This document shows positions 3,105 to 12,018 of a stretch of DNA of 64,000 nucleotides, in pieces (the first letter of the stretch is position 1; every line of letters begins with the position of its first letter). A program made the position numbers and the translations under genes. The DNA comes from Bacillota bacterium (lineage in GTDB: Bacteria; Bacillota; Sulfobacillia; JACIYH01), in assembly GCA_014360055.1 (NCBI GenBank), contig JACIYH010000002.1, positions 38,673-102,672 on the forward strand, given 5' to 3'. The notes beneath the pieces are model-generated. The model ran no database searches, had not been told where the DNA came from, and worked only from the letters and a program-made list of their open reading frames with translations.

Positions 3105-3295
3105 GACCAACCTCTGGAGAGGCGCGGGTACCCGTGGCAACGGACCAGGAGAGCCTGACTCCATCGTGGCCGGGGCATTCGCCGGGGTACCGCCACCGAA
3201 GGGGCAACTTCGAGGAGAAGGAAACTCTCAGGTGCAAGGACAGGGGAGCTCACTTCTGTGTGGGTTCTCCTGTTCCTGTTTTCGGGCAGGATATA
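3105..3295 (+). ncRNA. glycine riboswitch (one clear aptamer plus terminator-type expression platform) upstream of gcvT
   Basis: CTCTGGAGAG ... CCGCCACCGAAGGGGCAA ... AAACTCTCAGGTGCAAGGACAGGGGAG matches the glycine aptamer core; alternative pairing with downstream CTCCTGT followed by a T-tract. Confidence 0.75.
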
Positions 3296-3411
3296 CCCGG
3301 CGACGGGAGGGTACCGCGGCGCAGGACGATGGGTTCCCGCGAACGGGAGATTACCCGGGGACGGGACATTCCCGGGACGGCGGTCCCGGGCAGGAAAGGA
3401 GGGTGACGGTT

Positions 3412-4524
3412 ATGGGGATGGAGGAACTGAAGAAGACGCCGCTCTATGGCAACCACCTCAAGTACGGCGGCCGGATCATCGACTTCGCGGGATGGGCGCT
3501 GCCCGTGCAGTTCCGCAGCATCATCGAGGAGCACCACCAGGTGCGCAAGGCGGCCGGACTGTTCGATGTGTCGGACATGGGGGAGCTGGACATAAGGGGG
3601 CCGCAGGCCCTGGACCTGTTGCAGTACGCCCTCACCAACGACATGTCGACCGTGGCGGTCAACCAGGTACGGTACTCGCCCATGTGCAACCATCGGGGCG
3701 GTGTGGTGGACGACCTGCTGGTGTACCGGCTGGGCGAGGACCACTACTTCCTGGTGATCAACGCCGCCAACATCGAGAAGGACTACAACTGGGTGAAGGA
3801 ACTCGCGGGCCGCTTCCCGGGGGCGAAGGTGGAGAACGTCTCCGACAAGGTGGCGGAGCTGGCCCTGCAGGGACCCAACTCGGAGGCCATCCTGAGTAGG
3901 CTGACCAGGGCCGACCTTTCGGCCATCCGCTACTACTGGTGCGCCCAGGACGTGGAGGTGGCCGGGGTCAGGTGCATGGTTTCCCGCACCGGGTACACGG
4001 GGGAGGACGGGTTCGAGATCTTCTGTTCGCCCGAGGAAGCCCCCGGCCTGTGGGACACCCTGCTCGAGGAGGGCGACGAGTTGGGGCTGTGGCCGTGCGG
4101 GCTGGGCTGTCGGGACACCCTGCGCTTCGAGGCGGCCATGCCCCTTTACGGCCAGGAGATGGACGACGACACCACGCCCCTGGAGGCGGGACTGGGCAAG
4201 TACGTGAAGTTCGACAAGGGCGACTTCGTGGGCCGGGAGCCCCTGCTGGAGGAGAAGCGCACCGGCCTGCGCAAGAAGCTGGTGGGCCTGGAGATGGTAG
4301 GCCGGGGCATCGCCCGCACCGGCTACCCCGTGCTGAAGGATGGGGAGAAAGTGGGGTACGTGACCACCGGGTCGTACGCCCCCACCCTGGACAAGAACCT
4401 GGCGCTGGCCTTCGTGCCCCCGCAGCTGGCGGAAGTGGGGACCGGCTTGCAGGTGGAGATCCGGGGCAGGGGCGTGGGTGCCCGGGTGGTGAAGACCCCG
4501 TTCTACAGGAGGAGGGATAAGTGA
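3412..4524 (+). CDS. gcvT: aminomethyltransferase, glycine cleavage system T protein
   Basis: [20 protein letters not shown]...; ATG 3412 preceded by AGGAAAGGAGGG; in-frame part of ORF 3031..4524. Confidence 0.95.
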
Positions 4525-9816: not shown

Positions 9817-10646
9817 TCCGGGACGGATACCATGACGGCGCCACCAACATGGCCGTGGACGAGGCCATCATGCTGGCCCACGCCCGGGGAGAGGTTCCCC
9901 CCACCCTGCGCTTTTACGGCTGGCGGCCGCCCGCCCTGTCGCTGGGTTACGCCCAGAAGGCGGAGCGGGAAGTGGACCTGGAAGCCTGCCGCCGCGCCGG
10001 GGTGGACGTGGTGAGGCGGCCCACGGGCGGGCGGGCGGTGCTGCACGACCGCGAGGTGACCTACAGCGTGGTGATATCCACGGCCCTCTTCCCCGGGAGC
10101 GTGGTGGAAACCTACCGGCGGCTGAGTGCCGGCCTGGTGGAGGGTTTGCGCCTGCTCGGGTTGCAGGCCGAGGTACAGGAGGGGCCGCCCCGGGCGGGGT
10201 TGCGCTCGGCGGCCTGCTTCGACAGCCCTTCCTGGTACGAACTGGTGGTGGAGGGCAAGAAGGTGGTGGGCAGCGCCCAGGTGCGCAGGCTGGGGGTGCT
10301 GCTGCAGCACGGTTCCGTGCCGCTGGAGTTCTCGCCCGCGCAACTGGTTGGCCTGTTACGGCTACCCGCAGGCTGGCGGGCCCGCCTGCAGGAGGACCTG
10401 GCCGCCCACGCCGCCGGCCTGTGCGCCCTGGGGCCTCCCGTCACCTTCGCCGGGGTGTCCGACGCCCTGGCGGAGGGATTCCGGCGGGCCCTGGGCCTGG
10501 AACTCGAAGAACGCGGTCTCACTGCCGACGAGCAGGAAGAGGCCTCCAGGCTGCGGGAGGAGAAATACGCGACCTGGGAATGGAACGTGCTGGGCAAACT
10601 GCAAAGGGAGGATGCTGTCCGTGTACGACATAGTGGTGATCGGTAG
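9801..10646 (+). CDS. lipM: octanoyltransferase / lipoate-protein ligase family protein (LipM/LplA-like)
   Basis: TTG start; [52 protein letters not shown] is close to B. subtilis LipM [22 protein letters not shown]...IRFYGW; 281 aa. Confidence 0.85.
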   Translation: [281 protein letters not shown]

Positions 10647-12018
10647 CGGTCCGGGTGGCTACGTGGCCGCCATCCGGGCGGCACAGAAGGGCGCCCGCGT
10701 GGCCGTGGTGGAGCGGCGCGAGGTGGGGGGCACCTGCCTCAACCGCGGCTGCATCCCCACCAAGGCCCTGGTGAGGTCAGCCGAGGTGCTCCAGCTGGTG
10801 CGGCGGGCTGCCGAGTTCGGGGTGAAGGTCTCCGCTCCCGAGATCGACCTTGGCCGCGTCAAGGAACGCCGTTCCCAGGTGGTCAAGCAACTGGTGGACG
10901 GCGTGGAGCGGCTCTTCTCCTCCTGGGGGGTGACCCTTATCAGGGGGACGGCCCGCCTGAGCAGCCCCGGGGTGGTGGAGGTGGACCTGCCGGGGGGCGG
11001 TACGGAGGTCCTGTCGGGCCGGCAGGTGATCATCGCCACCGGTTCGGCGCCGGAACAGCCGCCCGTGCCGCCGGAGGACCTCCGCCTCTGCATGTCTTCC
11101 GACGATGCCCTCGACCCCGACCACGTCCCCGAAAGCATGGTGATCATCGGCGGCGGGGTGCTGGGGGTGGAGTTCGCCTGCCTCTACCGGGCTCTGGGAT
11201 GCAAGGTGGACATGGTGAAGCGCTCGCCCCTCATCCTACCGCCCGTGGACGAGGAACTGTCCCGCCGCATGATGGCCATCCTGCGCCGGCAGGGGATCAC
11301 CGTACACACGGGTATTTACGTGCAGCGGATCCTGGAGCACGACGGCGGGCGCCGGCTGATGGCCAAAGACAAGGAAGGGCGGGAGGTGCACTTCGACGCC
11401 GAGTGCGTCCTGGTGGCCATGGGCAGGGTGCCCGACTTCGGCGGCCTGGACCTGGATGCCCTGGGGGTGAAGTACGACCGCAAGGGCATCAAGGTGGGCG
11501 CGGACATGGCCACGGGCGTGCCGGGCGTCTGGGCCATCGGAGACGTGGTGGGACGCACCTTCCTGGCCTCGGTGGCCTCGGCGGAAGGCCTGGTGGCGGT
11601 GGACAGCATCCTGGGCGAAAGACGCGAGATGGACTACCGCAGCGCCCCCTACTGCGTCTTCTCCCTGCCCGAGATCGCGGGGGTGGGTCTCACGGAAAAG
11701 GCGGCCCGCGAGGCGGGACATCGCGTGAAGGTGGCGCGCTTCCCCTATTCGGCCAACGGGCGCGCCCAGGCCCTGGGCGAAACCGAGGGACTGGTGAAGA
11801 TGGTGGTCGAAGAGGACACCGGGAAAGTGCTGGGCCTGCACATCCTGGGGTACGGTGCGGACCTGCTCGTCCATGAAGGCGCGGTGGCCATCAAGATGGG
11901 GGCCACGGCCCGAGAGGTGGCGGAAATCGCCCACGCCCACCCCACCCTGGCGGAGACCGTGATGGAAGCTGCCGAGGGGGCGGCCGGGCAGTCCATCCAC
12001 CTGGTCAGGCTGCGCTGA
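10612..12018 (+). CDS. lpdA: dihydrolipoyl dehydrogenase (E3 / GCV L-protein)
   Basis: MLSVYDIVVIGSGPGGYVAAIRAAQKGARVAVVERREVGGTCLNRGCIPTKAL; RBS AAAGGGAGG; overlaps the lipM 3' end by 35 nt; in-frame part of ORF 10126..12018. Confidence 0.92.
   Translation: MLSVYDIVVIGSGPGGYVAAIRAAQKGARVAVVERREVGGTCLNRGCIPTKALVRSAEVLQLVRRAAEFGVKVSAPEIDLGRVKERRSQVVKQLVDGVERLFSSWGVTLIRGTARLSSPGVVEVDLPGGGTEVLSGRQVIIATGSAPEQPPVPPEDLRLCMSSDDALDPDHVPESMVIIGGGVLGVEFACLYRALGCKVDMVKRSPLILPPVDEELSRRMMAILRRQGITVHTGIYVQRILEHDGGRRLMAKDKEGREVHFDAECVLVAMGRVPDFGGLDLDALGVKYDRKGIKVGADMATGVPGVWAIGDVVGRTFLASVASAEGLVAVDSILGERREMDYRSAPYCVFSLPEIAGVGLTEKAAREAGHRVKVARFPYSANGRAQALGETEGLVKMVVEEDTGKVLGLHILGYGADLLVHEGAVAIKMGATAREVAEIAHAHPTLAETVMEAAEGAAGQSIHLVRLR

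Follow-up and report, generated by a model that had tools for sequence, protein, structure and literature searches.

A predicted LipM-LipS1/LipS2 lipoyl assembly line inside a riboswitch-led glycine cleavage operon of a Bacillota bacterium

Described relatives of the locus considered here are the two-protein lipoyl synthases, for which Neti et al. 2022 (PMC9585515) showed that LipS2 accepts only the octanoyl substrate and works at C8, while C6 is the site of LipS1, which takes nothing but the 8-mercaptooctanoyl intermediate. The locus lies in a stretch of 64,000 nucleotides (64 kb, hereafter the window) from a Bacillota bacterium of the Sulfobacillia (GenBank assembly GCA_014360055.1, contig JACIYH010000002.1, positions 38,673 to 102,672), where two radical-SAM (radical S-adenosylmethionine) genes and a gene of the LplA family are found amongst the genes of the glycine cleavage system. 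It is very probable, judging from the genes present and the families they belong to, and from how well the ligand residues and the operon are conserved, that this is one glycine-inducible operon that encodes both a complete glycine cleavage system and a three-enzyme LipM/LipS2/LipS1 line for making lipoyl on the H protein.

Bacterial LipS1/LipS2 are not new, they were reported in 2022 to adjoin GcvH and lipoate-ligase-family genes (PMC9585515) and were proven both genetically and biochemically in 2023, together with an sLpl(AB) ligase that acts on the carrier LbpA (Tanabe et al. 2023, PMC10332631), so that the novelty given to a bacterial version in the initial annotation of this DNA was overrated. 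It is also known that LipS1/S2 co-occur with LipM where there is no ligase, with 42 plus 41 Firmicutes genomes carrying LipS1/S2 and LipM according to S4 Table, and that in Sporomusa lipS1/S2 are directly linked to canonical lipoate-synthesis genes (PMC10332631). Every element of the operon and every pairwise association within it is already in the literature; a full-text search found no paper explicitly describing a riboswitch-led gcvTHP-lipS1-lipS2-lipM-lpd operon.

The pair in the window shares with LipS1 and LipS2 of Thermococcus kodakarensis (TK2109 and TK2248; Jin et al. 2020; PMC9585515) the CX3CX2C motif and the auxiliary ligands, and the motifs of LipA are in neither. The genomic setting differs, as in T. 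kodakarensis upwards of 130 genes separate the two whereas those of the window overlap by 4 nucleotides inside a gcv operon, and as T. kodakarensis attaches octanoate by a bipartite LplAB whereas in the window a LipM-type gene follows the pair. The organism of the window is also a bacterium with fatty-acid synthesis based on acyl carrier protein (ACP), unlike T. kodakarensis, and its LipS2 has an extra glycine-rich tail.

The sulfur oxidisers Hyphomicrobium denitrificans and Thioalkalivibrio have the same two-protein synthase in an operon that adjoins a lipoyl carrier gene (PMC6067878, PMC10332631), in their case with a two-domain sLpl(AB), often the flavoprotein LipT, and the LbpA of the sHdr system as substrate. 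In contrast, the window has a partner of the single-domain LipM type and neither LipT nor sHdr, and its carrier is a true GcvH, encoded as part of a complete gcvTHP-lpd set. Membership of the sLpl(AB)-type pathway can be ruled out on these grounds, the partner having one domain, the carrier being a gcvH equivalog and the flavoprotein a dihydrolipoyl dehydrogenase equivalog.

The third comparison is with the LipM-LipA(-LipL) relay of Bacillus subtilis, in which GcvH is the first acceptor. The window likewise has, beside GcvH, a single-domain enzyme of LipM type with a Cys/Lys dyad, and GcvH would logically come first as acceptor there too, but the relay inserts sulfur by LipA and not by LipS1 and LipS2, and a LipL was not seen in the window. 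The lipoate-assembly genes of B. subtilis are dispersed, whereas those of the window sit inside a riboswitch-controlled gcv operon.

The radical-SAM pair and the LipM-type gene

By sequence, radical-SAM genes A and B belong to the LipS1 and LipS2 families respectively, as all the defining features that could be tested are present. Curated NCBIfam equivalog models exist for both families, and each protein scores above the cutoff of its model, with the matches spanning positions 4-268 of 268 (NF053742, LipS1) and 1-292 of 292 (NF053743, LipS2). Both proteins also align over their full length with the T. kodakarensis enzymes, whose sequences are those printed in the supplementary material of PMC9585515, the protein text being corrected there against the DNA, LipS1 being 37% identical to TK2109 and LipS2 39% identical to TK2248 (expectation value, E, 4e-64).

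All residues shown or proposed to be ligands of both Fe-S clusters are retained in the two proteins. In LipS1 these are Cys47/51/54 for the radical-SAM cluster and Cys241, Cys288, Cys289 and His169 for the auxiliary cluster, and in a 10-sequence alignment that includes TK2109 the columns of its C27/C31/C34, H159, C230 and C276/C277 are invariant. The LipS2 of the window has Cys35/39/42 for the radical-SAM cluster and Cys81, Cys278 and Cys281 for the auxiliary one (GCPDCNRPYYNERPG), which correspond to TK2248 C39/43/46, C85 and C276/279 and are invariant in five sequences including TK2248. That the pair is a bacterial LipS1/LipS2, as the initial annotation had proposed, is thus borne out by the equivalog scores, the full-length alignments and the kept cluster ligands.

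Canonical LipA can be ruled out for either gene, with TIGR00510 (LipA) giving 18.4 bits for gene B against a cutoff of 310 and no match for gene A, and with the LipA motifs CX4CX5C and RSSY absent from both proteins while an E. coli LipA positive control has both. The CX3CX2C motif is found in only two open reading frames (ORFs) of more than 200 amino acids in the whole 64 kb, and tblastn with E. coli LipA and LipB as queries gave no match in the window, therefore no canonical LipA is encoded there, which agrees with the earlier claim. The reading of either gene as a MiaB-type methylthiotransferase was likewise rejected.

The gene that follows the pair quite probably encodes an octanoyltransferase of the LipM type, predicted to move octanoyl from octanoyl-ACP to GcvH K63. 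Its product of 281 amino acids has a single catalytic domain of the LplA/LipB family, with PF21948 and PF03099 as the only Pfam matches (residues 12-227) and no accessory domain found by Pfam. Cys139 and Lys154, 15 residues apart, are invariant in 18 homologues. The active-site dyad of LipM in B. subtilis is C150 and K165, with the acyl thioester on the Cys; a preprint documents C150 for LipL. Identity reaches 51% with an 'Octanoyltransferase LipM', so named in UniProt, from Tumebacillus and 57-58% with the cluster representative P0151, whose 90% cluster holds a Kyrpidia tusciae protein of the same name. These UniProt names and identities serve as a proxy for the LipM assignment, the criterion for LipM used by Tanabe et al. 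being the HAMAP profile MF_02118 with a cutoff of 130 (PMC10332631). The single domain, the Cys139/Lys154 pair and the relatives named LipM bear out the earlier description of this gene as a LipM/LplA-family octanoyltransferase or ligase.

The C-terminus of LipS2 in the clade of the window carries a glycine-rich, low-complexity tail of about 40 amino acids (9690-9816, + strand, in the window; also in the related loci L001 and L002), which ends in a conserved Cys (..TCAGG, ..ACAGA, ..RCAGV) and of which the T. kodakarensis enzyme is free. The LipS2 of Peptococcaceae bacterium CEB3 (locus L004, 8885-10030) has instead a repetitive insertion of about 65 amino acids after the radical-SAM motif.

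The operon, its leader and its relatives

The features of the operon are collected in Table 1. The initial annotation had given a co-directional string on the + strand from a glycine riboswitch through gcvT, gcvH, gcvPA, gcvPB, the two radical-SAM genes and a gene of the LplA family to lpdA, all of which was recovered with coordinates right to within one base. It had also described the glycine-cleavage operon as fused to the synthase, of which the operon linkage stands; a fusion of genes is ruled out, the ORFs being separate and each having its own start.

Table 1. Features of the riboswitch-led gcv-lipS operon, in coordinates of the window
Feature	Position	Strand	Basis
Glycine riboswitch aptamer	3104..3253	+	Rfam RF00504, 44.9 bits, gathering score 32
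Terminator-like expression platform	3238..3285	+	16-pair stem followed by CTGTTTTCGG; pattern scan
gcvT, aminomethyltransferase (T protein)	3412..4524	+	TIGR00528, 427 bits, cutoff 236
gcvH, lipoyl carrier H protein	4521..4910	+	TIGR00527, 170 bits, cutoff 116; PF01597
gcvPA, glycine dehydrogenase subunit 1	4910..6265	+	NF001696, 621 bits, cutoff 364
gcvPB, glycine dehydrogenase subunit 2	6256..7725	+	NF003346, 787 bits, cutoff 441
17-codon mini-ORF between gcvPB and lipS1	7725..7778	+	direct sequence reading
lipS1, radical-SAM gene A (CALNCAHC)	7778..8734	+	NF053742 LipS1 equivalog, 253 bits, cutoff 230
lipS2, radical-SAM gene B (CRRDCAFC)	8731..9816	+	NF053743 LipS2 equivalog, 336.2 bits, cutoff 270
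lipM-type single-domain gene, LplA family	9801..10646	+	PF21948, 130 bits, cutoff 27
lpdA, dihydrolipoyl dehydrogenase (L protein / E3)	10612..12018	+	TIGR01350, 499.5 bits, cutoff 408.8

The T, H, P-alpha, P-beta and L proteins are all encoded, with the lipoyl-assembly genes lying between gcvPB and lpdA, and the lipoyl-lysine of GcvH is K63, within an ESVK motif. A ribosome-binding site of the AGGAGG type precedes the ATG of gcvT. The tight coupling first described holds for six of the seven junctions, which overlap, the distances from gcvT through to lpdA being -4, -1, -10, +52, -4, -16 and -35 nucleotides. The sole gap, between gcvPB and lipS1, is spanned by the mini-ORF, which shares TGATG overlaps with the gcvPB stop and with the lipS1 start and whose first codons match the N-terminus of LipS1 in relatives (MPFPALV in loci L001 and L088). 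Those two loci have no gap, the stop of gcvPB and the start of lipS1 overlapping there, and the mini-ORF is probably what is left of a duplication or insertion, some 53 nucleotides long, that re-created the start of lipS1. When 2700-12300 was scanned for patterns, the 8.5 kb of the operon that lie 3' of 3453 gave no terminator-like site, and a sigma-70 promoter was not found anywhere in the range, the latter result being uninformative at a genome G+C of 69%.

The riboswitch is a single aptamer with a 63-nucleotide insertion in one hairpin and lies about 160 nucleotides 5' of gcvT. The pattern scan also placed a terminator-like hairpin with a T-rich tail at 3238-3275 which shares the 3' strand of the aptamer, and because of this overlap the binding of glycine would block the terminator; we infer that the riboswitch is an ON switch in which glycine prevents the terminator from forming. 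All seven related operons tested have a glycine riboswitch 5' of gcvT, with architectures that differ between singlet, tandem and a GGAnGA variant. Tandem riboswitches are found at L016 and L077, and Carboxydothermus islandicus (L056, 2418-2598) has the glycine-GGAnGA variant; the others tested were L001, L002, L037 and L043, with the aptamer of L001 covering 150 nucleotides, like that of the window.

The eight-gene order is kept in four close metagenome-assembled genomes (MAGs), in which LipS1 is 76-85% identical to that of the window, LipS2 in the closest MAGs is 76-89% identical, and the nearest MAG proteins are 85-99% identical to those of the window. GCA_030019365.1, GCA_040756455.1 and GCA_040757085.1 are close MAGs; LipS2 and GcvPB of the window have no identical entry by exact-sequence look-up. 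Peptococcaceae bacterium CEB3 has the same order minus lpd. To see how far the arrangement extends, species-representative genomes were scanned with a LipS2 alignment, and tblastn was used to place the eight proteins of the window, together with LipA and LipB of E. coli, on the best 80 loci of 536 confirmed relatives, where LipS2 identity in the species representatives is 42-57%. The 80 were kept for their closeness to the query, and the fractions that follow describe the clade of the window and not all LipS2. At least one gcv gene is present in 59/80 and lipS1 lies directly 5' of lipS2 in 67/80, the full gcvT-H-PA-PB-lipS1-lipS2-lipM order is found in 31/80 and the full order with lpd in 21/80. 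A permuted order of the lipS1-lipS2-gcvTHP type occurs in 16 of the 80, largely from Anaerolineae and other Chloroflexota, and none of the 80 has a match to E. coli LipA or LipB.

It is apparent that the arrangement is not due to chance, given that it is conserved in four MAGs and in dozens of other species. The genera represented include Symbiobacterium, Sporomusa, Desulfosporosinus, Desulfitobacterium, Carboxydothermus, Propionispira, Pelosinus and Halothermothrix, as well as Candidatus Frackibacter, and Halanaerobiales are represented. Complete genomes with the operon are those of Sporomusa silvacetica (NZ_CP155573.1), Desulfosporosinus paludis (NZ_CP144211.1) and Symbiobacterium thermophilum, among others. 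Symbiobacterium thermophilum, Sporomusa spp., Desulfosporosinus spp. and Carboxydothermus islandicus have the gcvTHPAPB-lipS1-lipS2-lipM(-lpd) order and a riboswitch leader as in the window, which differs from them only in sequence divergence and in the 52-nucleotide gap with its mini-ORF before lipS1.

The pathway that this set of genes would support begins with the binding of glycine to the leader riboswitch, which would block the overlapping terminator and allow the eight genes to be transcribed together. The LipM-type enzyme would then take octanoyl from octanoyl-ACP, through a thioester on Cys139, and place it on Lys63 of apo-GcvH, a role proposed from its family. With SAM and the [4Fe-4S] cluster of its radical-SAM site, LipS2 would remove a hydrogen from C8 of octanoyl-GcvH, and its auxiliary cluster would give up sulfur to form 8-mercaptooctanoyl-GcvH, and LipS1 would repeat this chemistry at C6 to give (dihydro)lipoyl-GcvH, LipS2 being put before LipS1 after the order of the T. 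kodakarensis enzymes (PMC9585515). LpdA would cycle the lipoyl cofactor during glycine cleavage.

The action of LipM, LipS2 and LipS1 on a genuine GcvH is a variant so far predicted from co-occurrence. Current knowledge of how lipoate is made is unchanged by the locus, which is rather a compact example of LipM-LipS1/LipS2 lipoate assembly tied to a real glycine cleavage system, and the survey shows riboswitch-led operons of this kind to be widespread in Bacillota, with a permuted form in Anaerolineae. The locus would make a good template on which to show that LipS1/LipS2 act on LipM-made octanoyl-GcvH in bacteria, and is of use in correcting the annotations 'radical SAM protein' and 'lipoate--protein ligase family protein' in MAGs.

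Competing readings of the lipoylation module

A number of points weigh against the pathway proposed above, the basis of which is at the level of sequence. The score of LipS1 exceeds its cutoff modestly (253 against 230 bits), and the operon has neither a gene for a reductant nor a partner for Fe-S cluster repair. In the bacterial pathway proven so far sLpl(AB) and LbpA stand where the window has LipM and a true GcvH, many bacteria with LipS1/S2 have LipA as well, and LipM has been derived from LplA several times through loss of LplB (Tanabe et al., PMC10332631). The best match of the third gene product in the PDB is furthermore the catalytic subunit of Thermoplasma acidophilum LplA, an ATP-dependent ligase (E 1.7e-23).

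The coexistence of LipA with LipS1/S2 leads to the alternative that survives best, namely that the module is a second system dedicated to GcvH, with a canonical LipA (accompanied by LipB, or by LipM and LipL) elsewhere in the genome serving other lipoyl proteins. We hold this to be a serious possibility, if somewhat short of an even chance, and it would modify the proposed pathway without excluding it. Co-occurrence with LipA is common in LipS1/S2-containing bacteria (Tanabe et al., PMC10332631) and the portion of the genome examined is 64 kb, but a match to LipA or LipB is absent by tblastn from the window and from within 10 kb of any of 86 related loci, and the genes that follow spo0A, set out below, give a hint, at the level of the window only, that there are few lipoyl clients to serve.

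Two tandem paralogues of the Leu/Val/Phe-dehydrogenase family lie 3' of spo0A (37893-39050 and 39063-40133, + strand), and after this pair comes a three-subunit 2-oxoacid:ferredoxin oxidoreductase (41037-43405, + strand). Bacillus carries its lipoate-dependent bkd operon at the equivalent place downstream of spo0A. A ferredoxin-dependent oxidoreductase in the place of bkd suggests that branched-chain oxoacids are oxidised independently of lipoate and that few proteins are lipoyl clients.

The opposite extreme would be that LipM, LipS2 and LipS1, acting in that order, are the only lipoyl assembly of the lineage and that GcvH is essentially its only lipoyl protein, which we regard as tentative and rather unlikely. 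Were it so, synthesis of the cofactor would stand wholly under the glycine riboswitch of its single client enzyme, and a lipoylation module that is dedicated to one client and gated by a riboswitch would be a new and tidy kind of regulation.

The next alternative concerns the third gene, which might encode an ATP-dependent octanoate/lipoate:protein ligase, being an LplA catalytic subunit that works by itself or is partnered by an LplB from another part of the genome. The operon and LipS1/LipS2 would be unchanged by this, with the pathway starting from free octanoate or lipoate in a way that resembles the archaeal and the sLpl(AB)-LipS1/S2 systems. Besides the likeness to T. acidophilum LplA, it speaks for a ligase that the experimentally proven LipS1/S2 pathways all start with one, that LipM and the N-terminal part of LplA (LplA-N) are interleaved in phylogeny, and that the sole NCBIfam matches of the third gene are to ligase models. 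These matches are however all well under cutoff (LplA_large 126 against 480, LplAB 82 against 550 and TIGR00545 71 against 280 bits), the invariant Cys139 that stands 15 residues before the conserved Lys is replaced by Ser in the T. acidophilum enzyme, a true ligase, and the protein shares 51-58% identity with proteins called LipM in UniProt or clustered with one so called. A Pfam scan of 40 further ORFs of the window (those of at least about 90 amino acids; E<=1e-5 or 1e-4) also gave no LplB-type gene or PF10437 domain, and the operon has none either. Because LipM has arisen repeatedly from LplA, sequence alone cannot settle between transferase and ligase, yet the balance of these features makes a ligase improbable and a LipM-type octanoyltransferase the preferred assignment.

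The last alternative is concerned with the radical-SAM pair. The two proteins had been described as unrelated to one another, which does not hold as both fall in the BioB-like group, with weak matches to TIGR00433 (BioB) and with biotin synthase 1r30 as the best, if weak, PDB match of LipS2; solved structures of LipS1 or LipS2 themselves are not detectable in the PDB by sequence. It is highly improbable that the pair carries out some other BioB-like or unrelated radical-SAM reaction and is in the gcv operon incidentally, for while members of the group were formerly annotated as biotin synthases (PMC9585515) and a likeness to biotin synthase is there (TIGR00433 E 1.6e-11 for gene B; 1r30 E 0.003), the BioB scores of 18.5 and 44 bits are far under the cutoff of 225 whereas both LipS equivalogs are above theirs, the LipS-specific auxiliary-cluster ligands are all conserved, and the pair strictly adjoins the LipM-type gene and GcvH across many phyla. 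That neither protein is a biotin synthase had already been proposed from context and is now upheld by the scores.

Other features of the window

The remaining ORFs scanned in the window are ordinary chromosomal genes, mostly of sporulation, and none is related to lipoate. They include a spoIIIA-type block that is syntenic with annotated relatives, accC, xseA, ispA, dxs, a recN-type gene of the SMC family, spoIVB, spo0A, a spoIIA-type block with a sigma factor, spoVA, gerA, lysA and trpS.

A full-length OLE (ornate large extremophilic) RNA is found at 29753-30350 on the + strand (Rfam RF01071, 468 bits), with a polyprenyl synthase gene (28853-29719) on its 5' side and dxs (ORF from 30215, with the Pfam match from residue 55) on its 3' side, leaving no space between OLE and dxs for an oapA-type gene. 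The gene pair at 24264-26509 (+ strand) encodes a protein with a DHODB-type Fe-S domain (24264-25109) and one with Fer4_20 and pyridine-nucleotide-disulfide oxidoreductase domains (25109-26509), and resembles electron-bifurcating or ferredoxin:NADP oxidoreductases of the NfnAB / GltD type. A lysine riboswitch (60083-60267, + strand; RF00168, 110 bits) lies directly 5' of a gene of the diaminopimelate decarboxylase type (60249-61655).

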